NCBI GenBank assembly: GCA_963766625.1
Contig: CAVYBF010000013.1
Coordinates: forward strand, 89,987 to 153,986
Length of the DNA stretch: 64,000 nt
DNA from: an uncultured Acidobacteriaceae bacterium
GTDB lineage: Bacteria; Acidobacteriota; Terriglobia; Terriglobales; Acidobacteriaceae
Direction: 5' to 3'
Part shown: positions 5,384 through 41,064 of the stretch, piece after piece
How the letters are laid out: each line of letters opens with the position of its first letter
Position numbering within the stretch: position 1 is the first letter of the stretch
Notes under the pieces: model-generated
Told to the model about the DNA's origin: nothing
Database searches by the model: none
Seen by the model: the letters and a program-made list of their open reading frames with translations, nothing else
Translations under genes and position numbers: made by a program

Positions 5384-5398
5384 TCGCGCGTGGGAGGA

Positions 5399-9286: not shown

Positions 9287-9288
9287 TC

Positions 9289-12588: not shown

Positions 12589-12590
12589 CA

Positions 12591-14189: not shown

Positions 14190-14379
14190 GCGAGCCGCCT
14201 ATCTGCAGTCTGTCTGCAGCGAATCACGCATTTCCTCGCGCTACCAGGGAAATGTAAATAACTCACCGCGAGTGGTGTCTGCGGTCACTGACAAGCAAAA
14301 TCGAAAGGTGAAAAACTTTCCTTGATCTTCGTGGACGTGCTCCCTATGTACGATCCGGTCTCAATGATCTGTCCTTTCG

Positions 14380-14402
14380 AGCGCCGCTAGCGGCGCTTTT
14401 TT
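14380..14402 (+). terminator. rho-independent terminator-like hairpin
   Basis: There is a perfect 18-nt palindrome AGCGCCGCTAGCGGCGCT followed by a T6 run. Confidence 0.55.
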
Positions 14403-14659
14403 ACTTTTCTCCTCCCCCCGGACCTTTTCGAAGGCCGTCATGAACGCCTCTTCCGGAAATTATCTGGTGCGATGTCCGTGGTTCGAAGGCAAAGGGCAGA
14501 TCCGTTGTCCTCGGATAAGGCGTCAGACTGGCCAACCGCTAAATCGAGTACCCGCTCAACCCTTAGCGCGCAGATTCGCTCGCCCTGCCACTCGACACAA
14601 AAGCCTAAAAACCAAGCGTTGAATTGATAAGCCCATTGTTTATGGGCGGGAGATCATTT

Positions 14660-18694: not shown

Positions 18695-18705
18695 GCAGTG
18701 AATGC

Positions 18706-18747
18706 AGCCCGAGGCTGGCGCATAAGCCAGCCTCGGGCTTCTGTTCT
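18706..18747 (+). terminator. rho-independent terminator
   Basis: A 13-bp perfect stem GCCCGAGGCTGGC / GCCAGCCTCGGGC with a 6-nt loop is followed by a T-rich tract. It starts 12 nt after the stop of the YVTN gene. Confidence 0.75.
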
Positions 18748-18954
18748 TCGCCACAGAACTTCCTGAAATTCCGCCGCAGAATCCACCATCACTGAGAGAT
18801 TCGTCACAAACGAATGTGAACCGCGTCACGGCGCTCGATGCTCGAAGACTCTACCTTGAGCCTTTATTTGTCTTGTGGTGATCGCCTGGGCGTATCTGGC
18901 GCCAGCGAATCGCATCTGTAGATCAGCTCCGGAACGATCCACTCTGATAGCGAG

Positions 18955-20649
18955 ATGACGGAAGACAGGGAAACAATCTGCGAAGTTGGCGAGAGGGCGC
19001 ACGAGCCACCCGACCCCGTCACCCAACCGCACGCTCGCACGGCTGATGCCTCGAGGTCCGAATCCGCGGGCAGACCGAAAGGTCCTCGATTGGATGTTGT
19101 CACTCTGATTCTGGTGATCCTGCTGCTTGCCGCTATTCGCTGGCGCCTGCGCGATATGCCGCTCGAGCGCGACGAAGGCGAGTACGGATACGCCGGACAG
19201 CTCATTCTGCAGGGAGTCCCACCATACCAGATTGCCTACAACATGAAGCTGCCGGGAACGTATGTGGCCTATGCCGTGATTATGGCGATCTTCGGGCAGA
19301 CTCCTGCCGGCATTCATGTCGGATTGTTGTTCGTGAACGCGCTCACGATTTTACTGGTATACGCCTTGGGCAAGCGGCTGTTTCGACCTCTTGCCGGTGT
19401 GGTTGCGGCAGCCAGTTACGGTCTACTCTCGGTGGGGCCGTGGGTCAACGGATTCGCCGGGCACGCCACCCACTTTGTTGTGGTCGCGGCAATAGCCGGG
19501 CTTTGGCTGCTGCTGAAGGCTATTGACGAGCAGAGTGATTGGAAAATCTTCTGCGCCGGATTGCTCCTCGGAGTGGCATTCCTGATGAAACAGCCGGGGG
19601 CAGCGTTTACGCTGTTCGGCGCTTTATACCTCCTGAAGTCTGGAGGTTGGACCAAAGAGAAATTGCGGAGTTCGGCTCGTCATCTGCTCTGGTTCGGCGC
19701 AGGCGCAGCATTGCCGTTCGCAATCACTTGCCTCGTGCTTTGGCGTGCGGGAGTGTTCGCGAAGTTCTGGTTCTGGACTTTTTCCTACGCCTATCAGTAC
19801 GGAACCAGTGTTGGCACGGTCGAAGGATGGCATTCCCTTGTGAAGAACTTTACGCCGGCATTACGGTCTGCCCTCGCAGTGTGGCTTTTGTCTGCCGTGG
19901 GCCTTAGCTGTTTTGTATGGAGTCGGAAGGCGCGAGCTCACGTCGACTTTGTTATAGGGCTTTTATTCTTTTCAGGTCTAGCCGTGTCCGCTGGTCTTTA
20001 TTTCCGCAGGCACTATTTCATCATGCTGCTGCCTGTCGTTTCGCTGCTTGTGGGACTTGCAGTCAGTTCCGTCGTCGATTTGGCGGAACATCGGAAAAGT
20101 AGCGTCCTGCGTTACGTCGCGATGGCAGCCTTCGTGATTGCATTTGCGAGTGCCATGCTTGAGGAAATGCGGTTTTACTTCCAGGCAGATCCCATTTCAG
20201 CTAGTCGCCACGTCTATCCCGAAGACCCTTTTCCGGAAGCCGCTGTAGTTGGCAGGTATATACAGCAGCATTCTGCGGCATCGGCATCAATCGCCGTGCT
20301 CGGCTCCGAGCCGCAAATTATGTTTTATGCACGACGCCGATCAGCAACGGGCTATCTCTACGCCTATCCCCTGACAGAAGAACAAGAGTACGCATCGACT
20401 ATGCAGCAGGAAGTAATCTCAGAAATCGAGGCAGCTAATCCCGAATATCTGGTATTTGCTTGGGATTGGGAGATTCGACCTCAATCTGAAAGGGCGATCT
20501 TTACCTGGGCCGATCAATACATCGCAAACAATTATGGGTTGGCAGGCGTAATGAGGGTACGCGACGGCTTACAGTTCCGATCGGAGAATGAGGTCCGCAG
20601 GACACCTGGACATCTGTGGGCGGCATTGTTCCTATTTCGGCGGAAGTAG
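18955..20649 (+). CDS. GT-C membrane glycosyltransferase, family 39 / ArnT-PMT-like
   Basis: It is polytopic. The first-loop motif LERDEGEYGYAGQLILQG.PPY is characteristic of ArnT/PMT_2-type enzymes. It has a C-terminal soluble domain. Confidence 0.7.
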   Translation: MTEDRETICEVGERAHEPPDPVTQPHARTADASRSESAGRPKGPRLDVVTLILVILLLAAIRWRLRDMPLERDEGEYGYAGQLILQGVPPYQIAYNMKLPGTYVAYAVIMAIFGQTPAGIHVGLLFVNALTILLVYALGKRLFRPLAGVVAAASYGLLSVGPWVNGFAGHATHFVVVAAIAGLWLLLKAIDEQSDWKIFCAGLLLGVAFLMKQPGAAFTLFGALYLLKSGGWTKEKLRSSARHLLWFGAGAALPFAITCLVLWRAGVFAKFWFWTFSYAYQYGTSVGTVEGWHSLVKNFTPALRSALAVWLLSAVGLSCFVWSRKARAHVDFVIGLLFFSGLAVSAGLYFRRHYFIMLLPVVSLLVGLAVSSVVDLAEHRKSSVLRYVAMAAFVIAFASAMLEEMRFYFQADPISASRHVYPEDPFPEAAVVGRYIQQHSAASASIAVLGSEPQIMFYARRRSATGYLYAYPLTEEQEYASTMQQEVISEIEAANPEYLVFAWDWEIRPQSERAIFTWADQYIANNYGLAGVMRVRDGLQFRSENEVRRTPGHLWAALFLFRRK

Positions 20650-20654
20650 TGGCG

Positions 20655-22181
20655 CTAATCCCCTCCTGCAATCGGACGGAACTCCACCACCACAATTTCT
20701 TGGTCGAAATCTTTAAGCACCTGAGATGTAAACGCCCCGCGTGAGTAGTTGTCGAACCACTGCAAAGTTGGGTAGGAAGATGGGGGCACGACAAAGAGAA
20801 ATTTCTGGTGCCGTTGTGCCGCAGCCAAAATGACTTGGCTGCCGATGCGGATTGTCTCATCATTCAGATCCATTGGAAGCAATACGACGGGTGCGTTGAT
20901 CGGATAATAAAACAATTGCGAGAACAGTGGATTTTCGCCGTTGCGATCGGTCGGCATGACCTCATAGTCGGACTCGATGAACGCGCTGCAAGTCAGCACC
21001 GGCACTGGATCGCCATCGTCGGCAAGATTGGCATTCACGAATGCATGGGCTTCCTTGAAATTGAGTTCATGCTTTCGAGAAAGCGGGGAGCTGTAAGATT
21101 CATACACCGCAACCGCTACCAGGCCGACGCAGAAGATCTGCCTTAACGCGCGGGAATCGATCTGACGAGTCAGCAGGGCCCAGGTTAACGCGCTGCCCGG
21201 AGCTACGACGGTGAGATAGCGGGGGATGAGCAGATGCACCGAACTGAGGGCGCCGGCGGAGAAGAAAACGGCGATCGGAACCAGTGCGAGCAGAGGTCCG
21301 AATAGGATTGCCGGCAAGCTCTCTCGATCGGGAAGGTTCAGTTTCCGAATCAGTGCAGCCATACAAGCCGCAATTACAAAACCGATCAGCAACTGCAGTG
21401 GCGCGAGCGTGTTGAGCGCGACCAAGACCGGGTGATGCATCTCTTGCACGACATGCATCGCTTTGGTGTGGTAAAGGCTTGCAATCCGGTAAATGAGTGG
21501 AACCGAGCAGAGAGTAAAAGCAGCTATTACCGCCGCTAGCTGCCGTAGATCTTCTTTGACAAAACCACGCCGCGCGATCAGATAGTAAATTGCAAACACG
21601 GGCAGGATCGCGCCGAACAAATAATGAAAGTAGAGAATTCCGGCTGCTGCGGCCCCGAACGCGATCGCTTGCCGCATTTCGCGTTTCGCCATCCAGCGGA
21701 TGAACGCGAAGGTGGCAAGGTTCGAAGCCAACAAGGCGAAAGCATACGGGCGTGCATCGGTCGCGGCAAATACCACGTTATTGGTCAGGGCGAAGAAGAT
21801 GCACGCGAGAAATGCGGTCTCATGATCGTAAAGCTCGTGGGCGCTGCGAAAAAGAAAGTAAACTGCGCCCAGCATGGCTAGCGTAGACGGAATTTTAAGG
21901 GCGATCTCGCTGCTTCCGAGAATCGATTTCACAAACCATAGCGTGTAGAGATAGCCGATCGACGAAGGCATAAGCGCCGACCGACTCCAAACCTTGGCGA
22001 AACCGCTGCTGACCTGCCAGTAAGCAAGCGTCTCGTCTAACCAGAGAGGAGCACGGATTGCTAAGAACCATATCGACACTGCGGCCAACAACGCCAAGGG
22101 ATAAATAAGTTTGGCGATGATGGAGACAGGTTTTTCAACTTCGGTTGTCCCCGCCGGTGTTGTTGTGATTACGGTCGCCAT
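20655..22181 (-). CDS. GT-C membrane glycosyltransferase, family 39 / PMT_2-like
   Basis: It is polytopic and has the motifs PLWLDETLAYW and DARPYAFALL. I prefer the ATG at 22181 (MATVITT..), which lies 10 nt downstream of the cytochrome stop. The longer track ORF would overlap the cytochrome gene. Confidence 0.7.
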   Translation of the reverse strand: MATVITTTPAGTTEVEKPVSIIAKLIYPLALLAAVSIWFLAIRAPLWLDETLAYWQVSSGFAKVWSRSALMPSSIGYLYTLWFVKSILGSSEIALKIPSTLAMLGAVYFLFRSAHELYDHETAFLACIFFALTNNVVFAATDARPYAFALLASNLATFAFIRWMAKREMRQAIAFGAAAAGILYFHYLFGAILPVFAIYYLIARRGFVKEDLRQLAAVIAAFTLCSVPLIYRIASLYHTKAMHVVQEMHHPVLVALNTLAPLQLLIGFVIAACMAALIRKLNLPDRESLPAILFGPLLALVPIAVFFSAGALSSVHLLIPRYLTVVAPGSALTWALLTRQIDSRALRQIFCVGLVAVAVYESYSSPLSRKHELNFKEAHAFVNANLADDGDPVPVLTCSAFIESDYEVMPTDRNGENPLFSQLFYYPINAPVVLLPMDLNDETIRIGSQVILAAAQRHQKFLFVVPPSSYPTLQWFDNYSRGAFTSQVLKDFDQEIVVVEFRPIAGGD

Positions 22182-22191
22182 TTCGAAGCTC

Positions 22192-24075
22192 TTACTTCTT
22201 CTGCACGGTTCCCGCACGTACCGCCGCGATGCTGCCATTTGGATTGTGCACAGTGTTATGGCACACCAGCGAACAAGTATTCGTAGAGCGGTTGTAGGAG
22301 ATAGGAAACGCCCCGTTCGGGCCCACCACGTTCACGTCAAAATTTACCAGCCGTTGGCCGCTCATGTTCGGGTTGATGCCGCCCATGCCGTGCGCGGTGT
22401 GACATACCGAACAGCTAAAGCCGGCGGCGATATGGCTCTGGTGCTGAGTGAAGCTGGCGTTGGTCATGATATTGCTGAGGCTGTGGCACTTTCCGCAGAG
22501 GGCGTAAGGCCCGTTCACGCTGAGATCGGGATTCTGAAATAAATTTGTAATCAGTTGGCCCGGCACCACCGCCTGGCTAAATTCATACCGGCGTTCGAGA
22601 ATGTGGGTCCACTTGGAACCATGCGGCCCATTCGGACCCGTGCCGCCGAACTCGCGATTGTCGTCGCTGTTGTGGCAATCGGTGCAGAGTATCTGCGTTC
22701 CCATGGCGCGACCTTGTGTGACGCCGTTGAGATTCCACATGTTACTCAGCAAGCTCGGCTGCGGCAGAGCGCTGTTGCTGACGTGAGTTACGGGATGACT
22801 CGAGGTAGCCGTAGTACTGAATTGCGGGATGATATTCAGAGGATCGCCGGCTGAAGCGGCGCGGACTGGAAGATATCCGTAAACCGGGCGAACGGCCTTT
22901 CCCGCGCTGGTTCCGTGACAACGGAAACAGTTCTCATATTGATTGACGACAGGCGCAACCACGGTCATGCCATCGGTCGCGCTGATTCCCGCCGAGTCCT
23001 TCTGCGAAACCCGCACCAGCGGAGGAGGTGGAAATACTCCCACCTGGGCTGAACCATGTCCATTGTGACAATCCACGCAGGTAGCGTGCCGGTTGTTATT
23101 CAGCAGCGCACTCTCGCCCGCATCGTGAGGATTGGTTGTAGTCGGAAACGGGTGACCGATCTTCGGCGCAGCATACTCGGAGAAGACATCGGGAGGGGTT
23201 GGCGTGATATTGGCGCCGCCATTGTGGCAGGCAATGCAATCCTGCTCATTGGCTCCGCGCAGCAGTCGCGCCGGGCCCTGGGCATTATGCGGGGCATGAC
23301 AGGCGATGCAGGCGTCCTGCGCCACGGTGGTGTAGCTGCCGACATTGGCTTGCGGCGAGATCTTGTTCTGCACGAGGGCGTGGGAGCTGGTGGCCCAATC
23401 GGCAAGCGGGTTCACTTTCCCGGCCATCTGGCGGTTCGGATCGTGGCAAGCCAGGCACATCTGTCCGTTCGAACTATCGCGCACCAGAAAATTCTGCGAG
23501 ATCGGATCCTTCGCCTGCACATGGGCGCTATGACATGAGGTGCATTCAATGTTGCCATTAACCAGGCGAATGGCTCCCGTGGGATCTCCGGTTTTGCCCT
23601 TAGCGGCCAAGGAAGCAAGCAAGTCGATGTTATCTTTCAACGGCAAGGCAAAGGCCAAGGGATGTGAGGGCTGCAGATTGGTGCCAAACACATCGTAGTT
23701 GTACATCGATCCGAACATCGTGATCTGGCCGTAGGCGGCGGTGGTTCCGGGCGCCACTGTTCCATCGTGACACGACAGGCAGAGATTGCTGTCGGCGCCC
23801 ATCGTGGGCTGGACTGCGCGATTCTTTTCCGTGTTGCTGGTGTACAAGCTATAGCTTTGCACCGTGAGCTTCTGATTCCACAGCGGTGTTCGACCGCCCA
23901 CGCCATTGTGCGGCTCGTGGCAATACATACAGAAATCGGGGCGTGCGCCGGTGATCGGCGATTTGCTGCCAGGGCCGAGATCGTGCATGCCAATCACGTC
24001 GCCTGTGGTCTGAGCCAGCAGAGTCCCTGCCATCAGAACCACGATCAGGCACCCGAATAAAAATTTACCTCGCAC
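22192..24075 (-). CDS. secreted multihaem c-type cytochrome (11 CxxCH + 1 CxxxCH)
   Basis: It has a signal peptide (FGCLIVVLMAGTLLAQ). The haem motifs are CMYCH, CLSCH, CTSCH, CLACH, CIACH x2, CVDCH, CFRCH, CTDCH, CGKCH and CSVCH, plus CSLVCH. Its GTG start overlaps the upstream stop (TAGTG). Confidence 0.9.
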   Translation of the reverse strand: MRGKFLFGCLIVVLMAGTLLAQTTGDVIGMHDLGPGSKSPITGARPDFCMYCHEPHNGVGGRTPLWNQKLTVQSYSLYTSNTEKNRAVQPTMGADSNLCLSCHDGTVAPGTTAAYGQITMFGSMYNYDVFGTNLQPSHPLAFALPLKDNIDLLASLAAKGKTGDPTGAIRLVNGNIECTSCHSAHVQAKDPISQNFLVRDSSNGQMCLACHDPNRQMAGKVNPLADWATSSHALVQNKISPQANVGSYTTVAQDACIACHAPHNAQGPARLLRGANEQDCIACHNGGANITPTPPDVFSEYAAPKIGHPFPTTTNPHDAGESALLNNNRHATCVDCHNGHGSAQVGVFPPPPLVRVSQKDSAGISATDGMTVVAPVVNQYENCFRCHGTSAGKAVRPVYGYLPVRAASAGDPLNIIPQFSTTATSSHPVTHVSNSALPQPSLLSNMWNLNGVTQGRAMGTQILCTDCHNSDDNREFGGTGPNGPHGSKWTHILERRYEFSQAVVPGQLITNLFQNPDLSVNGPYALCGKCHSLSNIMTNASFTQHQSHIAAGFSCSVCHTAHGMGGINPNMSGQRLVNFDVNVVGPNGAFPISYNRSTNTCSLVCHNTVHNPNGSIAAVRAGTVQKK

Positions 24076-25142
24076 TACATTCCTTCCTTAGGCTTCTTCA
24101 AGCCGAAATAGTGAAATACCTGAATGCGGTGATTGAACGAGTCCACCACGAAGATCCGGTCGTCGCGGTTGATGAATAAGCCGGCGGGCAACTGAAACTC
24201 GCCCGCGCCTGTGCCTCTTCCTCCAAAGTAATAGAGCAGATCTCCCTGAGGATTAAATACCTGCACCACTCCCCACAGGCCATCCACAATGTACAGATCA
24301 CCTTCCGAGTCGACTCCGACGCCTTTCGGCCGGAAAACGCTACCACTCGTGTCACCGACTTTGCCGATGGAGTAGCGGAAGTTGCCCGCGCGATCGAGCA
24401 CCTGTATGCGGAAATTCATGGCATCGACCACGATCAGGTTGTCGCCATCGAGACGCAGCTCAGTGGGCAAATTGAATTCGAGGTTGCCATCGCCTTTTTT
24501 GCCGATGGTTCCGAGGATGTTGCCCTGCATATCCAGCACGAAAATTTTGTCGCGCAGCGTGTCGGTCACGTAAATGCGTTGCGTGGCCGAGTCCACGGCG
24601 ATTCCCGTGGGACGCTTGTAATATCCCTCGCCGCCTTTAATGCTGCCGATCACGCGCTCATACTTTCCGCCGGAGTTGAAGACGAAAATTTTTCCGGTCT
24701 GCGAATCGGTCACGTAAATATTGTCCTGAGCATCGACCGCAACGCACTGCGGCGCCAGCATGGCATCCTTGTCTTTGTCGCGGCGCTCGATGAACTTGTA
24801 TTTCTGTTGTACGAAATCGAAGATGTGAACCCCACTCGCGCCCGGGTCCGTCACGATAATCCGCCCGCGCGAATCCACAGCAATGCTGTACGGCCGCACC
24901 AGATTCTTGAAGTCGGGCTCGCCCGCGATCACGTCGAGCACCCGGTTCCAGAAGCCGCGCTTCGGCTTCACTTCGCGTTCCGAGCCGAAGCTGCGTTCCC
25001 AGGTCAGCTTGCGGCCTCCCTCGAGTTCCAGGACCGGAGGCCCGGGTTCGGGATCGACGGCCTTGGGCCGCGAGCCGGCCCATGAAATACCCGGTGCGAG
25101 TAGCAGAGTCACAACCAACAGAAGCCGGCGCGGAACCCTCAT
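24075..25142 (-). CDS. secreted NHL-repeat beta-propeller protein
   Basis: The ATG is at 25142 (MRVPRRLLLVVTLLLAPGISWA). It has six NHL-like blades, for example PYSIAVDSRGRIIVTD, PQCVAVDAQDNIYVTD, PTGIAVDSATQRIYVTD and PKGVGVDSEGDLYIVD. Confidence 0.85.
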   Translation of the reverse strand: MRVPRRLLLVVTLLLAPGISWAGSRPKAVDPEPGPPVLELEGGRKLTWERSFGSEREVKPKRGFWNRVLDVIAGEPDFKNLVRPYSIAVDSRGRIIVTDPGASGVHIFDFVQQKYKFIERRDKDKDAMLAPQCVAVDAQDNIYVTDSQTGKIFVFNSGGKYERVIGSIKGGEGYYKRPTGIAVDSATQRIYVTDTLRDKIFVLDMQGNILGTIGKKGDGNLEFNLPTELRLDGDNLIVVDAMNFRIQVLDRAGNFRYSIGKVGDTSGSVFRPKGVGVDSEGDLYIVDGLWGVVQVFNPQGDLLYYFGGRGTGAGEFQLPAGLFINRDDRIFVVDSFNHRIQVFHYFGLKKPKEGM

Positions 25143-25185
25143 CTCACGCTCGCTTTTCTGCTTCTGTTTCGCACGCTGGCGAAGG

Positions 25186-27045
25186 CTAGAAGAAGTTGAA
25201 CCATCTGGATATCCCCACATAAAAAGCCGAGATCTTCGCCGGCGGCGCGTTTGAAATACTGAAGCTTTGATCCAGTCTACTGTACCCCCCAGTGAAGTAC
25301 ATTTTCCGGAATTGATATTGAATCAGCGTATTGATCTGCTCCATGTTGTTTTCGGAGGTGATTCCCAGCACGTTGCTGTTCCCGATTGCTTTTGCGAAGG
25401 TCGCGGCCACGGTCAGCCTGCGCTTGGGATTGCTGCTCAGGCCGGCCGAATAACTCTTGCCGCCGAAAAGAATAAGATCAGTTGGATTCAGCACCGGCTG
25501 TGGCGTAGGCGTCGCAGCTAACCCAGCGCCGGTCTCGATTCCATTCCCATCCGATTTCGAGTACGTGCCGTTCAGCGCAAACCAGTTCGAATAGTTGAGG
25601 GATGTGTTGTAACTCTCGCCACTGCTTGTCGTCCCGGCTTGTCCCGTCAGGCCGGTCTTGTTGACGCTGGCACCGGCCGTCCATCCAAACTTTCCCCAGC
25701 GGCGCCGGATGTTGGCGCCATATCCGTAAAATGAGGCCATATAGGTGACCAGCAAAGTTTGCACATTTTGCGAGTAGTTTCCGAAAACTCCCGCGGTCCA
25801 GCCATCGCTGAATCTCTTGTTGTAGTTGACCGTGGCACTAAGGCCAAGTTCGTTTGCACTCGAAGTGCTGACGGTGTTCTCGGTCACGGTAAGAGCTGTA
25901 TTAAAGTTGCCGCCAAACAAAACGTGCCCGTAAGTAAAGCCGCCGCCGTAGGAATCGGCGGAATAGTTCTTTCCCAGGAAATATTGCTGGCGATGGTCGG
26001 CAGAGGCCAGCGCTTGCATATTCGCCATCACCGAGTAGCTGGCCTGGCCCTGCAGGTCGAGAGAGTTCGATGACTGCCCTTGGGTCGGTGGAACCACGAT
26101 GCCTCCGGCGCTGGTGAGTGCCTGGTATAAACTGCCGGTGAGATTGTCGGAGTAATTGCTGCTGACGGAAAAGTGGAATTTGTTAGTCGGCTGAAAAGAT
26201 GCGCTCCCGATATAGGTATCGATGTTGCCATTGTAGCTGTAGCCATCGAAATTCGAATCGACATCGGAACGGTTGATGGCTGCTGAAAATCCGCCGTGCA
26301 GCGGTAGTTGATGCCCTACCGCAAAGCCATAGGCGTGGTTACTGGAAGTTGAATTCAGTGGCTGCGACGTGCCTTCAAGAATTTGCGGGATATTCGCGTG
26401 CGAGTCTCCACCCGTAAAATACCCACTCATGTTGAATCCCCTCAGGAGATAGCCCGACCGCAAACTGAATGATTTTGAATTCGTGCTTCCATTGTCGTTC
26501 GAACCGTAGATAGAATACTGGCTGTTCCCATCCTGAAAGTTGGCGGAGAGACTGGGCAATCCTGGCAGGATCTCAGACCAGGCGATGCCGAAGGTGTCGC
26601 TGTTGCCCTTGGTCGTATAGTTGGCTACCCCGGGAATCGCGTAATTGCCTTCGCTGTTGAGCGCCTTGGCGTATGTGATGGACCCCGGGAATTTGCTGCC
26701 GGCAAAAATCGAGCTGTCGAAATTCACTCCGCTGGCGTCGGAAATCGATTGGAAGGAGGAGTTGTCCCTTGCCTGATTGAGGTAAGGCGAAACCGTGTAA
26801 GAGAGAAAATTGGGATTGTAGTAATAACCGGACAGTGTTCCCGTTCCCCCGAACGCAAGACTGTGATCGGAGGGAATCCCCTGGTTTCCAAAATCTCCGT
26901 TGTACCCGGCGGAGAGAGTGCCGCTCAGATTGTTGCTGGTTTCGCCCAGCCTGAGCTGCGCCACAGCCGGCGGTATCAGCAGGAAGCTCCCCGCGAGAAC
27001 CAGAACGATATTTTGGAAAGCACCCTTCACGTTTACCCACTTCAT
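25186..27045 (-). CDS. outer-membrane beta-barrel (porin-like) protein
   Basis: The ATG is at 27045 (MKWVNVKGAFQNIVLVLAGSFLLIPPAVAQ, a signal peptide). It is about 620 aa, rich in G/S/N/Y/T with alternating beta-strand patterns. It ends ..ISRWFNFF, an aromatic C-terminal residue as in BAM substrates. Confidence 0.75.
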   Translation of the reverse strand: MKWVNVKGAFQNIVLVLAGSFLLIPPAVAQLRLGETSNNLSGTLSAGYNGDFGNQGIPSDHSLAFGGTGTLSGYYYNPNFLSYTVSPYLNQARDNSSFQSISDASGVNFDSSIFAGSKFPGSITYAKALNSEGNYAIPGVANYTTKGNSDTFGIAWSEILPGLPSLSANFQDGNSQYSIYGSNDNGSTNSKSFSLRSGYLLRGFNMSGYFTGGDSHANIPQILEGTSQPLNSTSSNHAYGFAVGHQLPLHGGFSAAINRSDVDSNFDGYSYNGNIDTYIGSASFQPTNKFHFSVSSNYSDNLTGSLYQALTSAGGIVVPPTQGQSSNSLDLQGQASYSVMANMQALASADHRQQYFLGKNYSADSYGGGFTYGHVLFGGNFNTALTVTENTVSTSSANELGLSATVNYNKRFSDGWTAGVFGNYSQNVQTLLVTYMASFYGYGANIRRRWGKFGWTAGASVNKTGLTGQAGTTSSGESYNTSLNYSNWFALNGTYSKSDGNGIETGAGLAATPTPQPVLNPTDLILFGGKSYSAGLSSNPKRRLTVAATFAKAIGNSNVLGITSENNMEQINTLIQYQFRKMYFTGGYSRLDQSFSISNAPPAKISAFYVGISRWFNFF

Positions 27046-27502
27046 GCCGCCCACGGCAGCATCCCTGCTTATGCGTTGTTTTCTGGCTACCCCACAGCGG
27101 CCAGCCTGCGGTTTGTGGTTGCCACGTCCGATCCCTTCAGGGTGGGTTTGCCTCTTCCCAACTGAAAGGCGACCGGCCATTGGTTTCCTCTAATCAAGGA
27201 AAAGCACGTTCCACGCCAGACCGAGCCGACAAGTAGGCCTTTGGAATCTATGAGATAGTGGGGTATGCGAGGGGAATTCTGGGGCATATAACCCAGCTAA
27301 AGCCAAGAGCACAAGGCATTTGGCGCAAATGGGCCACGCGATGTAGGGACACCCCCGCCCTCGGCTGTACCGGGAGCGAAGCGGCGCAGCTTTCGATTGT
27401 GATTTTGCGAACTATTGTCGTGATGGCTTCTTTTTCCAGAGGATAAAAAACACGTCCGATTTGGGATCGTGGAGATAGTAAGGAGCGCTCTAAAGCCCGC
27501 AT

Positions 27503-27548
27503 GGACAGGCGAGGGCGGCTGTCCCTACCCCGCCGAGGGCGGCTGTCT
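27503..27548. repeat. REP-like element: two direct copies of CGAGGGCGGCTGTC(C/T) with a hairpin (GGACAG..CTGTCC)
   Basis: The direct repeats are at 27510-27524 and 27533-27547. The element lies immediately 3' of the PPIase stop on the minus strand and may act as a terminator or RNA-stabilising element. Confidence 0.6.
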
Positions 27549-28595
27549 TTACAACACTTCTACTTTGGCGCCCTTATGCAGGCGCTGATCCAGGGCCGCG
27601 CGCACCGCATTCAGCTTCTTCTGCTGGAGTTCCTTCTGCAGTGAATCCTTCACCTCTTCAAATTTCATCTTCCCCGCGGGGATGTGCTGGTTCAGCCGCA
27701 CGATGGTATACGCCTGCTCGATCTGGATAACGCCGGTAATCTCGCCTGGCTTGAGCGCGAGGAGCGCCTGTACCACCTGCGGCGCGAGCTTGTCGCGATC
27801 CACTTTCTTGTGGTCCCCCATCATCACGCGGTAATCATCTTCGGAGATCCTTTCTGCCAGCACCCCGAATTGTTCGTAGCTGGTGGCCGCTTTGGCCTGC
27901 TTCAATCCGTCCTCGGCGCGCTTGCGCAGTTCTTTCAAATTGGCAGCCGTGGGCTGCGCCGGAGGCAAAAAGGAAATGGTCTGGAAGGCAAAACCTTCGG
28001 GATATTCGAAGCGCGTCGGATTTTTATCGTAATAGGCGCGAGCCTCGGCGGCCGACACAGTGGACTTGGCATCCACTTCCACCTTCAGGTAGGCATCGAT
28101 CAGCAGCGAGCGCTTGATCTTCTCATCTACAGCCTTTTGCGATCCGTTGAATTGTGAAACCAGAAATTGTTGATACTCTTCCGGACTTTTAAATTGCCCG
28201 CGAAAATCCTCTTCCGCCTTCTTCAGCTTCGCCGGCGAGATCGTCATCTTGCGCCGCAGCGCTTCCTGGTAAGCCAGTTCCTCGAAGACAATCATCTGCA
28301 GCGCTCCTCTGCGGATCTGCGGCTCCATCTCAGGAGGGACCTGACCGTTGTGCTGCGCTGCATAGGGAAACAGCGTGTACTCTTCGCGCAGCAGATCACG
28401 ATCGGTCAATACCGACCCGTTCACGCGAGCGACCGGCTTTCCCGTCGGTTCTGTCATTGCGCTTTGCGTCGCCACCGCGCTCCGGCTATGCGATACCGCG
28501 AGCTGTTGCGCCGCCATCGGCGTGTGCGCTGCCGCAACCAGCCCCACCAGAACCAGCCCCAGAATCAGGATGCGTCGGGAGAATTTGTTTTTCAT
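27549..28595 (-). CDS. periplasmic SurA/PpiD-like chaperone with parvulin-type PPIase domain
   Basis: The ATG at 28595 follows AAGGATGGAG, and a signal peptide is present. It has a SurA_N-like helical region and a rotamase-like part (ARAYYDKNPTRFEYPEGFAFQTISF, LKPGEITGVIQIEQAYTIVRL). Confidence 0.7.
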   Translation of the reverse strand: MKNKFSRRILILGLVLVGLVAAAHTPMAAQQLAVSHSRSAVATQSAMTEPTGKPVARVNGSVLTDRDLLREEYTLFPYAAQHNGQVPPEMEPQIRRGALQMIVFEELAYQEALRRKMTISPAKLKKAEEDFRGQFKSPEEYQQFLVSQFNGSQKAVDEKIKRSLLIDAYLKVEVDAKSTVSAAEARAYYDKNPTRFEYPEGFAFQTISFLPPAQPTAANLKELRKRAEDGLKQAKAATSYEQFGVLAERISEDDYRVMMGDHKKVDRDKLAPQVVQALLALKPGEITGVIQIEQAYTIVRLNQHIPAGKMKFEEVKDSLQKELQQKKLNAVRAALDQRLHKGAKVEVL

Positions 28596-28661
28596 AACTC
28601 CATCCTTGCCCACAACTTCATTTACTCACAATTTCTCATGCTCTCAGATTATTTTGCTCAC

Positions 28662-28691
28662 AAAAAGAGGGGAGAGGTTCGCTCTCCCCTC
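28662..28691 (-). terminator. rho-independent terminator after the tetrahaem cytochrome gene
   Basis: On the minus strand a 10-bp stem GAGGGGAGAG / CTCTCCCCTC with a 6-nt loop is followed by TTTTTG. It starts 19 nt after the stop at 28710. Confidence 0.75.
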
Positions 28692-28709
28692 GTGGTTACG
28701 ACGGACAGC

Positions 28710-29591
28710 TTAGAAGGTCGTCGGAATCAGGTAGCTTCCGTTCGACTCGTTTGCCTCTCCACCGTGGCACTCACGGCAGAACTGTGCGGTCTGGTTCGAT
28801 CCCGCAGTGCCGCTGGCCGGGTTGTAGGGGCCGATCACAAAGAACATCGTCGCATAGGGGCCACTCGGTAAGCCGCTCTTTGGGCCATTGGTAACCTTTA
28901 CGACGTTCATCACGTGCTGGTTGTGGCAAGTCGTGCACTGCACTGTCGGCTCGTTGTTGTAAGCCGCAGGGCTCACGAAGAAACCGTAATTGGTGACGAA
29001 GGCGGAGGAATTCGGGCCATTCATACTGATCGCCCCGCTTCCGTTGATACTGCAATCCCAATTCCACTGTCCGCCGCAGCCAATAATGGCGTTCAAGCCC
29101 ACCGGGTGGGTTGACAGGTAGCCTTCCGAGTTCCCTCCGCCGCCCAACAGGGTTGGAATCTTGTTGAAGGTTCCGTATGTGTTCGGCAGGGTCTCATATA
29201 CCTGATCCTTCATCATTGCACCTTGGGCATAGTTGCCGTCATGGCAGCTAAGACAGGTCAGCAGGCCGTTAACATCGGGGGTTCCGGCGGCCATGGTGGC
29301 CGGCAGAACTTCGGTGTAACCAGTCGTGCCGTTGGTGCTGCCCGTGATGATGGTCTTGCCAAACAGAGCGCCTACGTCTTGGCCCCACAGAATCGAGGTG
29401 CCGCCGGTGAGGTTGCCGGACTTGTTAGCGCCGTTGCCGGACGCGCCGTTGTGTGGCGCGTGGCAGCCTGCGCAGCCACGGCCGTAGTTGAGGTGGGCGC
29501 CCAATACGTCGGACGTCGGTGCCTGGATCTGGGCCAAGGCGAAACTCGCCATCGCCAGAACCATCAGCATGACTAAAAAGCTCTTTTTCAT
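28710..29591 (-). CDS. secreted tetrahaem c-type cytochrome
   Basis: The ATG at 29591 follows AAAGGAGC, and a signal peptide is present (MKKSFLVMLMVLAMASFALAQ). The four haem motifs are CAGCH, CLSCH, CTTCH and CRECH. Its N-terminal CxxCHxPHNG..LW / CLSCHDG pattern matches the start of the 12-haem protein. Confidence 0.85.
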   Translation of the reverse strand: MKKSFLVMLMVLAMASFALAQIQAPTSDVLGAHLNYGRGCAGCHAPHNGASGNGANKSGNLTGGTSILWGQDVGALFGKTIITGSTNGTTGYTEVLPATMAAGTPDVNGLLTCLSCHDGNYAQGAMMKDQVYETLPNTYGTFNKIPTLLGGGGNSEGYLSTHPVGLNAIIGCGGQWNWDCSINGSGAISMNGPNSSAFVTNYGFFVSPAAYNNEPTVQCTTCHNQHVMNVVKVTNGPKSGLPSGPYATMFFVIGPYNPASGTAGSNQTAQFCRECHGGEANESNGSYLIPTTF

Positions 29592-29992
29592 ATTAGCTCC
29601 TTTATGAAGTGTTGCAACACAGCCACATCTACCATTTACGGATTGCTGAACCGCTTTGGAACTCTCAAGGTCCATAATGTTGCGGGAGGTCTTGCGACAC
29701 TTCCCGATGACCATATGTGCACGATGGCCACCGCAGCCTGGTTACCTGTGGTTTGAATCTGACAATTTTCTAAACAATTGTCACAAAAGGATTTACTAAT
29801 GATCTTTGGTAACCGGGCAGATTTGGGAAGGCACAGGCCTTAATGGAGTTGAGGGTTATTCCACAGCGGTTCGGTGAAATAACACAAATAATTCCAATGA
29901 TTCGTGCTGCATTTTTCAACGAACCACCCGGCGCAGGGGCCCTGCCTGTGGCCGGATTAAACCATTCGAAGAAGCACAATTCAGCGGGGACC

Positions 29993-30160
29993 AACGGTTT
30001 GGGGAGGGGCACGACTTTAGTCGTGCCATAAAGCGCCAACAAAGATGCGGGGCTTTAGCCCCTGAGGGAAAGCTCGGCGAGCAGCACAGCGGCTGAAGCC
30101 GCTGTCGGTTCGGATGGGACCTTACGGCACGACTAAAGTCGTGCCCTACCCAAAACCGTT
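29993..30160. repeat. composite REP/BIME-like element (four hairpins; outer two are inverted copies of one ~35-bp unit)
   Basis: The left arm is AACGGTTTGGGGAGGGGCACGACTTTAGTCGTGCC (29993-30027). The right arm is its near-identical reverse complement (30126-30160). Between them lie the hairpins GGGGCTTTAGCCCC (30049-30062) and ACAGCGGCTGAAGCCGCTGT (30086-30105). Confidence 0.75.
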
Positions 30161-30177
30161 CGCGACTCTCGGCGCGG

Positions 30178-31521
30178 CTACTTTGGCGGTGCCGCAGGAG
30201 CTATCGGCGCGGCTGCGTCCGCCGGTTTCCGTGCCGGAGCGGGTGCCGTGGTCGCCGGAGCAGGTGTCTGCGCAGTGCTGCTTGCTCCCTTGCGCGCTGC
30301 GGCGGCATTGGCCAACTCGGTCTGGCGCCGGTCTTTCTCGGCGTTCGCCTCGGACTCGGTTATATAGCGAAACATCTGCATGCGTCCGGGATACTGTTCG
30401 GTGGTGAAGACACGATTCTGTTTGTCAATGGCAATCCCCACCAGCGCTTTGAATTGGCCGGGACCGTTGGCGTGAGTGTCACCAATGTAAGTCAGCAGTT
30501 GGCCTTCGCGGTTATACACCTGAACGCGATCCTGGTATTGATCCGCAACCCAGATGTGACCGTCGGAATCAATGGCGATGCCCTTGGGACGGAAGAAGTA
30601 TCCCGGACCATCGCCGGCTTTGCCGAAGGTGCTGATAAAGTTGCCGTCGGAATCGAACATTTCCACGCGGCTGTTGAGGGTATCAGTAACGTAGACGTTG
30701 CCGTCGGAATCGACCGCAACATTGGTCGGCGCGGAAAACTCGCCCGGGCCGGTCATCGTGTGCTTCTTGGCCGGAGGCACCACAGGGCCAAGCTTTCTCA
30801 GCTGCTTGAGGCTGTCGGCGTCGTATACGAAGACCTGATCCTGTTGCTCATCGACTACATAGAGAAAACGGTTTTCGTTGTCGATGGCCAGCCCCACGGG
30901 ATCAACTAATCCTTCGACGATCTGACCCTCGATTTCATGTTTGGAATTAAAGATCAAAACGTGGCGCAGTTTGCCATCGGAGACGAAAAGGCGATCGGCA
31001 TCGTCGATGGCGAGCCCGTTAATCCATCCAAAATGCGCATCGCTGCCATTCTTGATAAGGGTGGCGTCGTGGGCCTCAGTATTGAAGATGAAGATGGCTC
31101 CCACTTTTTGATCGGCCACATACACCAGACCTTTGGAGTCGATGGCGATGCCGTAAGGTCCGATCAACTGCCAGGGGAAGGTCTTGAGCTTGTCGAGGTT
31201 GTCTTCCTGCTTGGCGCCGGCCACGCGATCCATCCAACTCTGCTTTTTCTTGGTGGCAGCAACGGGAGTGCGGTCGATCTTCATGCCCGTGTATTGATCC
31301 AGCCAGCGGACGCGAGCAATGTTCGGCGGGTTCGGCCAGACCAGCTTCGAGGTATCGATGTCGAGCTTGGGAGTCTCGGCTGGCGGAGGCGCGTCAGCTT
31401 TCTTTTTTTTCTTATCGCCGCCGTACATTGCAGCCGGCGAAGCCAGGCCTAGAATAAGCAGAATCACAAGCGCGGCCAGCGCTTTGCCATTGCGATTTAA
31501 TTTGTGAAGGTGCGCGTACAT
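30178..31521 (-). CDS. secreted NHL-repeat beta-propeller protein with Ala/Pro-rich C-terminal tail
   Basis: It has a signal/anchor sequence (ALAALVILLILGLASPAAMYG). NHL blades include PYGIAIDSKGLVYVAD, INGLAIDDADRLFVSD, PVGLAIDNENRFLYVVD, PTNVAVDSDGNVYVTD and PKGIAIDSDGHIWVAD. It lies 16 nt downstream of the 16-haem cytochrome gene. Confidence 0.85.
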   Translation of the reverse strand: MYAHLHKLNRNGKALAALVILLILGLASPAAMYGGDKKKKKADAPPPAETPKLDIDTSKLVWPNPPNIARVRWLDQYTGMKIDRTPVAATKKKQSWMDRVAGAKQEDNLDKLKTFPWQLIGPYGIAIDSKGLVYVADQKVGAIFIFNTEAHDATLIKNGSDAHFGWINGLAIDDADRLFVSDGKLRHVLIFNSKHEIEGQIVEGLVDPVGLAIDNENRFLYVVDEQQDQVFVYDADSLKQLRKLGPVVPPAKKHTMTGPGEFSAPTNVAVDSDGNVYVTDTLNSRVEMFDSDGNFISTFGKAGDGPGYFFRPKGIAIDSDGHIWVADQYQDRVQVYNREGQLLTYIGDTHANGPGQFKALVGIAIDKQNRVFTTEQYPGRMQMFRYITESEANAEKDRRQTELANAAAARKGASSTAQTPAPATTAPAPARKPADAAAPIAPAAPPK

Positions 31522-31537
31522 GTTCTGATCTCCTGTG

Positions 31538-33019
31538 CTAATTCCCCGGTATTGTCGTATCTCGCATGTTGATTCGGTTCTTATGGCAGTTATCGCAGAA
31601 GGCCATGTTGTTCTGCTGATCTTTCACCAGCAGATCGGGCTGCGCCGAAGAATGCGGCTGATGGCAGCTCATGCATGTCATATGAGTCTTGACTTTGGCT
31701 ATGTTCGTCGGATCCATCACATCACCAACGGGATGGCCTTCCACAGGATGCCCCAGCCCATACCGCAGCGGCAGGATCGGCACCTGATTCTTCTTGTAAT
31801 AATCCTCGGGCAACTTCACCTGTCCATTGAAGATGGTCAGCACGTGTTCGGCTTCGAGCTTCTGCGGAGCTGAATCCGGGCCGTGGCACTCGAGGCAGAG
31901 GCCATTTCCCTTTACGCGCAGCAGATGATCGTTCTCGCCACCATGGGGCTCGTGGCAAGTCGCGCAGCCCTGTTTGAAGGCAGGCTGATGCAGATAGTGC
32001 TTCTTACCCTGATCGGCCTGATCGCTGTGGCAGCCCAGGCAAATGTCGACAGCGTTTGTCTTGGGAAGCCCGGGCTGTGAGCTGGCATGAGGACTGTGGC
32101 AGTCGGTGCAATCCCCAGCGGCGCCGGGATGCGGAACTTTCGCCTTCTCAATCAGCTCCGCTTTATCCGAATGGCAAGTGACGCAGAGCGATTTCGCGTC
32201 GGGCTGTGTGAGCACCACTTTCCCGTCCTTGGCCGGCGCATGGCAAACGTCACATTGCTTTTCGGCGAAAGGCGGGTGCATGAATTTGGCCATCAGCTTT
32301 GGAGCCGCTGACTGGTGCGGATCATGGCAGCCCAGGCAATCGGCTTTATCGAACGGCTGGTTCTGATGAGCTTTTTGCAGGTTCGCATCTTTGGCATCGT
32401 GGCAGTCGAGACACAGGGCCGGCGATCCTTTAGTGAGATGGAAGTCGAACTCGGCTTTGCCCACTTCGCCGGTCTTATGCGTGGTATGGCAGGTTTCGCA
32501 GCCCATGTCGAGAGCGGCGTGCCGGCTGCCTTTTTCCGGAACATTTACTCCGGTGTTGTGGCAACTCAGGCAGAGATTCTCTTTCTGATCTCCCGAGGTG
32601 GGCTTCAGGAGCTGGAATTTGTTGTCGGATTCATGCGGATCGTGGCATTTCAAGCAGTCGCGCACTGCCGGGGGATGTACCGTTCCTTTTATGTCCGCCG
32701 CATTTTTATCCGCATGGCAGGTGATGCAAAGAGCACGAGGGGTGGTGGTAATGAGCTTCACGTGAGTCACGTCGCGGTTGACGCGAACCTCGTGACAGCT
32801 CATACAGCCCATCGCCATCGCCGAATGAACCGATTTTCCTTTGGTTTTATCTTCGTGACATGCCAGGCAGGTGGAAGGGTCGGCTTTAGGATCCAGCGGA
32901 ACCGGGTGCTCAACTGCGAAAACCCGGCAAATGGAAAGGATGAAAAAAAAGAGTAAATACCCTAGCTCGCGAATCGGGCGGCTACTCCCGAGCCTCAATT
33001 TGTATGATGACAGTGCCAC
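31538..33019 (-). CDS. multihaem c-type cytochrome, 16 CxxCH motifs
   Basis: I counted 16 canonical CxxCH motifs in 493 aa, many in the CxxCH(D/E/S)PH form typical of c3/c7-type modules. It has an N-terminal hydrophobic signal (LGYLLFFFILSICRVFA). Confidence 0.9.
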   Translation of the reverse strand: MALSSYKLRLGSSRPIRELGYLLFFFILSICRVFAVEHPVPLDPKADPSTCLACHEDKTKGKSVHSAMAMGCMSCHEVRVNRDVTHVKLITTTPRALCITCHADKNAADIKGTVHPPAVRDCLKCHDPHESDNKFQLLKPTSGDQKENLCLSCHNTGVNVPEKGSRHAALDMGCETCHTTHKTGEVGKAEFDFHLTKGSPALCLDCHDAKDANLQKAHQNQPFDKADCLGCHDPHQSAAPKLMAKFMHPPFAEKQCDVCHAPAKDGKVVLTQPDAKSLCVTCHSDKAELIEKAKVPHPGAAGDCTDCHSPHASSQPGLPKTNAVDICLGCHSDQADQGKKHYLHQPAFKQGCATCHEPHGGENDHLLRVKGNGLCLECHGPDSAPQKLEAEHVLTIFNGQVKLPEDYYKKNQVPILPLRYGLGHPVEGHPVGDVMDPTNIAKVKTHMTCMSCHQPHSSAQPDLLVKDQQNNMAFCDNCHKNRINMRDTTIPGN

Positions 33020-33396
33020 AAGCCGACTCCTGTATCACTGGCATTTGCACGCGCTTCGCCTAAATCGGTGAAGCCAGCGACCTTCTTAACAGGAGCGGTA
33101 ACTTATTGCAACACAATAGTTTGCACTCACTTGGGGTCACATCCCAACCTCATGCTGTTGCAAGATTCATCAGTTTGGGGGCTTATCCCACAGTGAAATG
33201 GTCTAAATGACGCAAGTAACTCAGGCCTGCGCCAAAGCCGACTTACCCGAACCCGTAACAAGGCAATTTCCTGCGTGCCTTCCGGCACATCTAAGCATCT
33301 AGAAAATGTCTGGCTTCGTGAAACGAAATCTTTTTGAACAAATCGAATTCAGAAGCAGCAGATTTTTTTGAAGAGCAACCTGCAAGGAGCAAGTGT

Positions 33397-34341
33397 ATGA
33401 ACATTCGCAGTGTTTTGTCTAACACAGTCTTCGCCGCGGCGCTTTGCCTGTACGGAGCGCCGGTTCTCTCAGCACAAGCGCAGCCGGGCAACGGAATTCC
33501 CGTTCACACGGTTGTGACGATCGAAGCCCACAAGGGCTCGAACCCTCCATCCATCGGTCAGCAGGATGTCCTCGTAACCGAGAACAAAAAAGAGCGCGAC
33601 CCTGTAACGGAATGGATCCCCGCGCAGGGCGATCACGCCGATCTCGAGTTCTTCATTCTGATCGATGACGGAGCCAACATGACTCTGGGCACCGAACTGG
33701 AAACGCTTCGCAAGTTCATCCTTGACCAGCCTCCGACCACAAAAATCGGCCTCGCCTACATGCAGAACGGCATTGCCAGGGTCGCCCAGAATCTCACCCC
33801 CGACCATGAGGCCGCGGCCAAGGCTCTGCGCCTGCCCACTGGGATCAGGGGTATCAACGGCAGTCCCTATTTTTCTGTCAGCGATCTGGTGAAGCGCTGG
33901 CCGGCCGGAGCGCCGCGCCGCGAAGTGCTCATGATTTCCGACGGCATTGACCGCTACTACGGCGAGGCCGATTTTTTGGATCCTTATCTCGACGCCACCA
34001 TCGATGATTGTCAGCGCGGCGGCATCGTTGTCTCTGCCATCTATACCCCCGGCATGGGCCACTTCGGCCACGATTTCTACATGAGCTACTGGGGCCAGCT
34101 TTATATGGCACGACTAGCCGACGAGACCGGAGGCGAAGCCTATTACGTTGGCATGATGGGTCCGCCGGTATCGTTTACTCCGTATTTGGACCAACTTTCG
34201 AATCGCCTCCTGCACCAGTACCTGCTCACCTTCCTGGCTAAGCCACCGAAGAAAGCAGGATTGCAGCCGGTGCGAATCGCAACCGAAGTTCCGAATGCGG
34301 ATTTGGTCGCGCCCAGGAAAGTCTGGGTTCCGGCGATGTAG
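33397..34341 (+). CDS. secreted protein, possibly vWA-like fold (function uncertain)
   Basis: The ATG at 33397 follows AAGGAG, and a signal peptide is present (VFAAALCLYGAPVLSAQA). It has a Rossmann-like beta-alpha pattern (LEFFILIDDGAN.., REVLMISDGIDRYY) but no clear MIDAS DxSxS motif. Confidence 0.45.
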   Translation: MNIRSVLSNTVFAAALCLYGAPVLSAQAQPGNGIPVHTVVTIEAHKGSNPPSIGQQDVLVTENKKERDPVTEWIPAQGDHADLEFFILIDDGANMTLGTELETLRKFILDQPPTTKIGLAYMQNGIARVAQNLTPDHEAAAKALRLPTGIRGINGSPYFSVSDLVKRWPAGAPRREVLMISDGIDRYYGEADFLDPYLDATIDDCQRGGIVVSAIYTPGMGHFGHDFYMSYWGQLYMARLADETGGEAYYVGMMGPPVSFTPYLDQLSNRLLHQYLLTFLAKPPKKAGLQPVRIATEVPNADLVAPRKVWVPAM

Positions 34342-34593
34342 GAGGAAAGTTCAAAAAGCGGAGCCTGTGACGGGGAAAAATATCCCCAGTATGGGCTCCG
34401 CGGTTTTTTGCGCCTGGATAATTACCTGCGGGTCCGCTTAGGTTCCTGTCAAGTAATCGCAAGGCGGCTTCATGGCGGGCAGTGGCGCGCCGAGCAACCC
34501 CAACGTCGTGTTCACCGATTCCCAGCTGCGCCAGCTTCGAGCGAACTGCCTCGGCTGGCCCTCTTTGCAGCGGACTTGGGCATCATCAGCCGC

Positions 34594-41029: not shown

Positions 41030-41064
41030 GGTTCGTTGTCGTCCGCACTTAGGGCTGGCTAATT

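Follow-up and report, generated by a model that had tools for sequence, protein, structure and literature searches.

Terriglobales are among the most abundant bacteria of acidic soils and peat, and which electron acceptor serves there under anaerobic conditions is an open biogeochemical question. A gene cluster that may bear on it lies in a 64,000-nt stretch of an uncultured Acidobacteriaceae bacterium (contig CAVYBF010000013.1; hereafter the window), where the open reading frame (ORF) listing and its translations place seven minus-strand genes, A to G, within positions 22192-33019. They encode three c-type cytochromes (A, C and G), two NHL propellers (B and F), a SurA-like chaperone (D) and a large outer-membrane beta-barrel (E). 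An earlier account made from the letters alone, which we call the sequence-only reading, took this set for a possible extracellular or periplasmic electron-transfer module, a candidate trans-envelope conduit of unusual composition. Is it such a conduit, or do its parts belong to a system that carries electrons further from the cell? We find that the cluster is real, strongly conserved and functionally coherent; that it is, very probably, homologous to clusters of the omcE type and works in extracellular electron transfer; and, a step we take with less assurance but to which we incline, that it is the Terriglobales counterpart of the Geobacter omcE cytochrome-filament cluster.

OmcE-like sequence in cytochromes C and G

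The argument begins with the small cytochrome C. Every member of its family has four CxxCH motifs (81/81, the window protein counted), and its histidines number exactly eight, all invariant across 29 orthologues, as is a Cys173/Cys181 pair; the protein is rich in Gly, Asn, Ser and Thr and has eight N-x-S/T sites. When the C family is aligned with the OmcE family, profile against profile, hhalign returns 98.7-98.8% (E 4e-16 to 7e-17) over 186-190 columns, whereas other multihaem cytochrome families, used as controls, match only in the surroundings of one motif, over 15-17 columns. When 69 sequences (the C family, the N-terminus of G and 39 homologues of OmcE) are aligned together, every one of them keeps the four CxxCH motifs and three histidines besides; these three non-motif histidines of C align with invariant histidines in OmcE (H48, H163, H227). 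The fourth, N-terminal histidine is invariant inside each family, its position being offset between C and OmcE. C also matches the N-terminus of G directly (BLASTP, E 2e-8). Judged on these alignments C is an OmcE-family homologue, albeit a remote one whose relationship is visible by profile-profile comparison and via G only. The gene occupies the position in its cluster that omcE occupies in the Geobacter cluster, and it lies together with a large barrel and a beta-propeller, the gene context that bioRxiv 10.1101/2025.10.22.684050 uses as its criterion.

In G the resemblance is more direct. Residues 1-212 form an N-terminal OmcE-like tetrahaem module, followed by an eight-haem extension, and the complement of 11 CxxCH and one CxxxCH recurs in all members of the family (65/65, the window protein counted). 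The match to OmcE structures (7tfs_A, E 2.5e-15; 9yuq_N, which we take to be the D. soudanensis OmcE bundle, E 1e-8) spans the entire OmcE protein, from signal peptide to last haem, and family against family hhalign gives 99.6% over 197 columns. The extension contains a match to Mtrc-MtrF_II-IV_dom (45.8 bits, cutoff 30), and two cytochromes of the Geobacter omcE cluster align with G at 98.1% and 96.0% over 129-143 columns. The alignment of 98% over 143 columns might mean that OmcE has been joined in G to a cytochrome like MHC370 of Geobacter, but the match is rich in haem motifs and we take it as suggestive only. Against TIGR03507, the OmcA/MtrC family, G has no match at E <= 0.01, and it has no lipobox. 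That C and the N-terminus of G are both OmcE homologues had escaped the sequence-only reading; this kinship speaks for a filament system at the surface, beyond a conduit of the Mtr/Pcc type alone.

What initiates, tips or terminates OmcE filaments is a question posed in bioRxiv 10.1101/2025.10.22.684050, which finds no OmcE-like candidate with extra haems in Geobacter operons. It is possible, although we would not call it likely, that an OmcE-type filament of C has its adaptor or cap in G, encoded in the same operon. In that role G would join the polymer end by its OmcE-like module, via the same histidine-haem contact that ordinary subunits use, and its eight-haem extension would link that end either with the 16-haem cytochrome in the barrel (at the base) or with the substrate (at the tip). 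G would then supply a part for which Geobacter operons hold no candidate, the fused OmcE-module cytochrome would offer a genetic handle on filament anchoring or capping, and the cluster would be the first sign that Acidobacteriota, dominant bacteria of peat and soil, make cytochrome nanowires.

C is further distinguished by the way its gene ends. The sequence-only reading gave it a terminator of its own, and there is one indeed: a 10-bp GC-rich hairpin with five T residues, 19 nt past the C stop (Table 1). To put locus counts in context, note that a scan with C over one genome per GTDB species found it in 138 species and that counts out of 80 loci in this text refer to the best 80 of them. In 67 of these 80 loci a hairpin of <= -12 kcal/mol and a T-run follow within 130 nt of the C stop. 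A conserved terminator after C fits a subunit made in excess over its machinery.

The region upstream of C has features of its own. Its leader (29595-29860, minus strand) holds blocks conserved across many Terriglobales loci, CGGTGGTTCTCGTGCA and TATGGACCTCGAGAGTTCC, and the palindrome GTGTTGCAACAC, directly 5' of the C ribosome-binding site, is conserved in the same manner; the leader has no match in Rfam and could be a regulatory or stabilising 5' untranslated region. A perfect 8+8 inverted repeat at 29760-29783, TGACAATT-N8-AATTGTCA, resembles an operator and has no expectation by chance, but it is absent from 86/86 related loci, hence specific to this genome, and we set it aside for want of conservation. 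Separately, loci L009 and L013 are extra, solitary C-like tetrahaem copies away from the cluster, in genomes that also hold loci L025 and L019, and they recall the OmcS paralogues of Geobacter.

Part-by-part comparison with the omcE cluster

How far do the other genes correspond? According to bioRxiv 10.1101/2025.10.22.684050, omcE clusters comprise multihaem cytochromes, two beta-propellers, a small tetrahaem cytochrome and a big barrel, followed in many cases by glycosyltransferases of families 2, 4 and 39; five phyla are given there for OmcE homologues, with Acidobacteriota not among them. In G. sulfurreducens the omcE locus, which we reached via an OmcE homologue, runs from purHDE, PpcA, ResB and CcsA through a 9-haem and an 8-haem cytochrome to an NHL/DUF5128 lipoprotein, OmcE, a 752-aa barrel and glycosyltransferases, and a second Desulfuromonadia omcE locus supplies the second propeller. 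The Desulfuromonadia cluster (GSU0615-0619 region; D. soudanensis; structures 7TFS and 9YUQ) thus has the same parts as the window cluster in nearly the same order. The large cytochromes differ in having 16 and 12 haems here against 9 and 8 there, and one of them, G, carries a fused OmcE-like module; the small subunit here is a divergent, longer relative of OmcE.

Cytochrome A matches Paired_CXXCH_1 (E 2e-64) and has 16 haems in 56 of the 57 members of its family, the window protein included. It scores 184.4 bits against TIGR03508, the DmsE family, where the cutoff is 192.2, and it matches the MtrA chain 6r2q_A at E 9e-18; hhalign aligns it with the two Geobacter omcE-cluster cytochromes at 99.8% and 99.5%. 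By these scores A is an MtrA/DmsE-type cytochrome, related to TIGR03508 but outside its cutoff, and we propose that it acts as a periplasmic or in-barrel haem wire. By hhalign, A and G are this cluster's version of the two homologous multihaem cytochromes of omcE clusters. Because A, C and G are the only CxxCH-bearing ORFs that a motif scan finds in the 64-kb window, chance is no concern for their grouping.

Propellers B and F both belong to the NHL/DUF5128 type in Pfam and NCBIfam. Compared with the propeller of the Geobacter omcE cluster, F has 34% identity over 319 aa (E 7e-51) and B has 26% (E 3e-35); B, whose C-terminal tail is rich in Pro and Ala, also matches the second propeller of locus L086 (E 7e-46). 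Searched against the window, the Geobacter propeller has F and B as its top two matches (164 and 125 bits), with another NHL protein at 45 bits. F is the best conserved protein of the cluster, with 64-90% identity wherever a true orthologue is present.

The chaperone D contains Rotamase_2 (E 7e-18) and SurA_N_3 (E 7e-9) and adjoins C always in the related loci. Barrel E, modelled with AlphaFold2, has about 28 strands and no plug (pLDDT 64); it matches no family in Pfam or NCBIfam and bears no MtrB/PioB signature, and its own family counts 620 representatives at 50% clustering. In one distant member of that family, P0403 (1018 aa), two AMIN domains precede the barrel as an N-terminal fusion. 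PilQ secretins and AmiC carry such domains too, and the fusion hints that the barrel family can be tied to a fixed position in the envelope.

Glycosylation genes, which follow the cluster in the common freshwater form of the omcE locus, are found here as the PMT_2 genes H and I. H lies directly downstream of G, as it does in L001, L002 and a large share of the related loci, and a convergent PMT_2 gene like I is present in L001 and three related loci; we count I as part of the system only tentatively. The type differs: Geobacter has GT2 and GT4 enzymes (glycosyltransferase families 2 and 4), whereas genes of these families are lacking here and PMT_2 alone is present.

Conservation of the cluster as a unit is extensive. 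C, D, E, F and G keep this order in most of the 80 loci, the majority of those with long enough flanks among them, and the barrel is conserved together with the cytochromes in 65 of them. A and B lie directly upstream of C or, in one subclade, downstream of G (L051, L056, L058, L059, L061, L063, L065, L073, L079 and L082); since their position varies between subclades, the pair appears to be a movable two-gene module. Almost all of the 80 loci come from Terriglobales metagenome-assembled genomes (MAGs) of bogs, palsa and soils, under labels such as Acidobacteriaceae, Korobacteraceae, Sulfotelmatobacter and Terracidiphilus, and none is identical to the window. E and C each have hundreds to thousands of relatives in databases, nearly all without a name.

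These results bear on three findings that the sequence-only reading had itself listed as telling against a conduit, namely cytochromes of known periplasmic enzyme families, a barrel without co-conservation, and adjacency of cytochrome and NHL genes that fails in related genomes. None of the three was observed: in profile searches the cytochromes fall outside the NrfA, HAO and ONR families and are MtrA/DmsE-like and OmcE-like instead, the barrel travels with them, and the cytochrome-NHL adjacency is conserved in Terriglobales and also in Desulfuromonadia. Extracellular electron transfer thus stands, while the supposedly unusual composition does not, as the parts match those of described omcE clusters.

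Nor is the core of the cluster new. An 'Acidobacteriota EET1: Porin-NHL-CytC cluster' was described in May 2026 (Fiorito et al., bioRxiv 10.64898/2026.05.27.727921), consisting of an MtrB-like porin (TM 0.48), an NHL 'scaffold' and a '13-heme OmcE-like MHC' (multihaem cytochrome) that resembles 7TFS with TM 0.70. The same preprint reports that the core genes are transcribed through a peat profile and predicts the family of the G-type cytochrome to be extracellular. EET1 is defined by adjacent genes for a barrel, an NHL protein and an OmcE-like cytochrome in Terriglobales or UBA7540; this is the arrangement of E, F and G, and the window cluster is another EET1 member. Haem motifs number 13 in the preprint, which uses looser patterns, and 12 in our count. 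The barrel-NHL-OmcE-like triad of Terriglobales was thus already in print, and the conduit hypothesis of the sequence-only reading is essentially the published EET1 reading. As far as its text goes, the preprint treats a three-gene core as an Mtr-like conduit, with C and its terminator, the peptidyl-prolyl isomerase (PPIase) gene, the A-B pair and the synteny with omcE lying outside that treatment. Our contribution is to tie the cluster to the omcE nanowire cluster and to the small tetrahaem subunit.

A functional parallel exists in another filament system. Shen and colleagues reportedly found in 2025 that OscH contains a prolyl isomerase and that OscD is propeller-like. The osc operon, companion of omcS in G. 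sulfurreducens, is described as encoding the folding factor OscH, the secretion or channel components OscE, OscF and OscG, and the morphology factor OscD (PMC13194489). D, E and B/F would fill like slots here; the parallel is one of function only, and the CxxCH scan of the 64-kb window finds no OmcS-type hexahaem gene.

Filament, conduit or another role

How might such a cluster operate? In the mechanism that we favour as a whole, though not by much, A would carry electrons across the periplasm into or through barrel E, a placement suggested by its MtrA/DmsE kinship. G, presumably made together with E and F given that the F and G genes overlap, would sit at the outer face, where its OmcE-like module would dock OmcE-family subunits. 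C, transcribed as a unit that ends in its own conserved terminator, would be the abundant subunit; it is a candidate for an abundant or polymerising extracellular protein, and, if it behaves as OmcE does, its copies would stack into a wire of haems via histidine ligation between subunits. We put the formation of filaments by C at close to an even chance. D, by analogy with OscH, may chaperone largely unstructured cytochrome subunits in the periplasm; B and F, homologous to propellers of the Geobacter cluster, may serve as assembly or shape factors; and the PMT_2 enzymes H and I may glycosylate the exported cytochrome, as OmcE is glycosylated. Judging from habitat, the electrons probably end up on metal oxides or on organic matter, particulate or humic, in peat and soil. 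If the cluster does build more than a short conduit, namely OmcE-type surface wires, it becomes plausible, and testable, that a dominant soil phylum passes electrons over long range to particulate organic matter.

A number of observations argue against this mechanism. C finds no OmcE match among Protein Data Bank (PDB) sequences by phmmer or profile search, and its AlphaFold2 model, made from the 69-sequence alignment and without haems, is unusable at pLDDT 48. Compared with OmcE, C is about 65 residues longer, with a conserved 17-residue tail after haem 4, and its N-terminal histidine lies 7 residues before haem motif 1 rather than 20. E has no detectable homology to the Geobacter omcE-cluster barrel, which at about 750 aa is also larger than its own 620 aa: BLASTP, hhalign (probability <1%, with 36, 68 or 94 sequences for E and one or three for the other barrel) and unfiltered hmmsearch (E >0.2) were all null, even with a diverse profile of 93 sequences, and we accordingly claim no homology between the two. 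B and F are without the lipobox cysteine that the Geobacter and L086 propellers have and are apparently not lipoproteins as in the omcE cluster, and the SurA-like PPIase D is an addition, with no counterpart found in the Geobacter omcE cluster. More generally, tetrahaem OmcE-like proteins are widespread and need not all form filaments (bioRxiv 10.1101/2025.10.22.684050), and what cytochrome filaments do physiologically is a matter of dispute in its own right (PMC11077965). Polymerisation, whether of C or of G, is something we infer by analogy with OmcE.

Imagine, alternatively, that there were no filament at all. E would then house a cytochrome, G would be a monomeric surface reductase, the NHL proteins would be scaffolds, and C would be a soluble periplasmic tetrahaem shuttle that feeds A, in the manner of CctA/STC or PpcA. 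The composition of the cluster lends itself to such a porin-cytochrome conduit in several respects: like MtrCAB and Pcc it has an MtrA/DmsE-type cytochrome, a large barrel and a putative surface multihaem cytochrome with an MtrC-like domain, the MtrC/MtrF domain II/IV-like segment of G. A Foldseek search with the E model returns generic large barrels, the best of them MtrB (6r2q_B, TMq 0.42), close to other large barrels, and E, F and G have been modelled as a complex (bioRxiv 10.64898/2026.05.27.727921). C has a weak match to CctA, confined to its N-terminus, and eight histidines for four haems would also suit a monomeric bis-His tetrahaem protein. On closer comparison, the likeness to MtrCAB loosens at each part. 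The MtrA/DmsE proteins are decahaem cytochromes, whereas A has 16 haems and scores below the family cutoff; MtrB/PioB barrels have 26 strands, whereas about 28 are predicted for E; OmcA/MtrC are decahaem lipoproteins, and G matches at the level of a domain only. Further, Mtr and Pcc systems lack anything like the two propellers, the PPIase or the OmcE-family subunit. Both solved members of the OmcE family, to which C and the N-terminus of G are assigned, are filaments; in its parts the cluster corresponds to the omcE filament cluster; C has the conserved terminator of its own that a product in excess would call for; and the periplasmic shuttle of Geobacter is a separate small trihaem protein, PpcA, encoded beside the cluster. 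We regard the non-filamentous conduit, the view taken in the sequence-only reading and in the EET1 preprint, as the chief alternative, though a doubtful one.

A further possibility is that the same hardware runs in reverse: electrons would be drawn from Fe(II) outside the cell, from reduced humics or from a partner cell, and passed inward. The gene content of the cluster is compatible with either direction of electron flow, and its neighbourhood has no gene for an inner-membrane partner that handles quinol or quinone. Mtr- and Mto-type conduits work both ways in other bacteria. Electron uptake nevertheless seems improbable to us, as there is no positive sign of it, OmcE homologues have been studied in metal reducers, and the carriers of EET1 are organotrophic in the metabolic reconstruction of bioRxiv 10.64898/2026.05.27.727921.

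Least probable is a periplasmic or surface redox enzyme system in which the NHL propellers are catalysts of organic substrates (lactonase-, lyase- or oxidoreductase-like) and the cytochromes form their electron chain: propellers of the NHL, SGL and arylesterase types do include enzymes, B and F have sub-threshold matches to such families, and F is so well conserved, but neither reaches an enzyme family at its curated cutoff (ScyF, 148 bits against 350), no cofactor-binding motif was identified in them, the same propellers occur in Geobacter nanowire clusters, and OscD is reported to affect filament morphology (PMC13194489).

Gene layout and neighbourhood

Table 1. Coordinates of the cluster, its spacer and terminator, and the adjoining glycosyltransferase genes.
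Feature	Position	Strand	Remarks
A, 16-haem c-type cytochrome	31538-33019	-	493 aa, 16 CxxCH
B, NHL six-bladed beta-propeller 1	30178-31521	-	NHL E 4e-24, DUF5128
Hairpin-rich spacer 3' of B	29960-30177	-	two GCACGACTWWAGTCGTGC copies and terminator-like hairpin 30062-30049
C, OmcE-family tetrahaem cytochrome (by profile)	ORF 28710-29714, likely 28710-29594	-	4 CxxCH, 294-aa precursor
Intrinsic terminator 3' of C	28667-28691	-	GAGGGGAGAG-CGAAC-CTCTCCCCTC then T5
D, periplasmic SurA-like chaperone, one parvulin PPIase domain	27549-28613	-	Rotamase_2, SurA_N_3
E, large outer-membrane beta-barrel	ORF 25186-27180, likely 25186-27048	-	620 aa, ..RWFNFF end
F, NHL six-bladed beta-propeller 2	24075-25220, likely start 25142	-	NHL E 1e-25
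G, 12-haem cytochrome	22192-24075	-	627 aa, 11 CxxCH and 1 CxxxCH
H, PMT_2 (GT-C, GT39-like) membrane glycosyltransferase	20655-22238	-	PMT_2 E 2e-14
I, second PMT_2 glycosyltransferase, convergent with H	18955-20649	+	PMT_2 E 5e-13

ORF calls and translations reproduce the genes of the sequence-only reading, with their coordinates, strand and haem counts. The later starts that we give for C (at MKKSF), E and F were judged from signal peptides and orthologue lengths, and it is with its later start that E becomes the barrel of about 620 aa, ending in NFF, that had been described. Signal peptides had been assigned to all products, and by eye an N-terminal hydrophobic, signal-like segment is present in each of A to G. 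A and B are separated by 16 nt, and, as had been noted, the GTG start of G overlaps the stop of F, by one base (..ATG TAGTG CGA..). The claim that failed concerns the spacer between B and C, which had been called a cluster of repetitive extragenic palindromic (REP) elements. Its 18-nt palindrome, GCACGACTWWAGTCGTGC, occurs twice, both times within this spacer, and is absent from the rest of the window and from 86 related loci; it is not a repeated-element family, and we reject the label. An Rfam scan of 20000-35000 gave no match.

Several features of the surroundings deserve mention. ResB and CcsA adjoin the cluster in L001 and L002, as in Geobacter, and neither turned up among those ORFs of the window that were examined. 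About 6.6 kb upstream of the cluster, at 39620-41814 on the minus strand, are genes for a HAMP histidine kinase and an OmpR-type response regulator. A kinase of similar kind is the immediate neighbour of ResB/CcsA and the cluster in L001 and L002, so the kinase here may be the cluster's regulator.

Convergent with the cluster is a plus-strand block (5159-20649) that encodes an MBOAT O-acyltransferase, a protein with TPR and SGNH/GDSL domains, a 1099-aa NHL/Ig protein, a 1356-aa propeller/Ig/CHB_HEX_C protein and the second PMT_2 glycosyltransferase. The flanks of the cluster in L001 and L002 hold a giant TEN_NHL protein, a TPR-GDSL protein and a PMT_2 protein. The block may be a linked module for the modification of surface glycoproteins.

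Three near-complete clusters (L040, L049 and L053; C at 64-77% identity) occur in MAGs labelled Verrucomicrobiia, Candidatus Cybelea and Candidatus Aquilonibacter, which reflects either misbinning or horizontal transfer out of Terriglobales. Elsewhere in the window, some 10 kb of lower GC content (0.475-0.50 against 0.55-0.58) and positive AT skew come after a tyrosine integrase gene (50932-52041) and contain the gene of an AAA_25 protein and several ORFs without a family match; the whole of 50932-62000 is probably an integrated mobile element.

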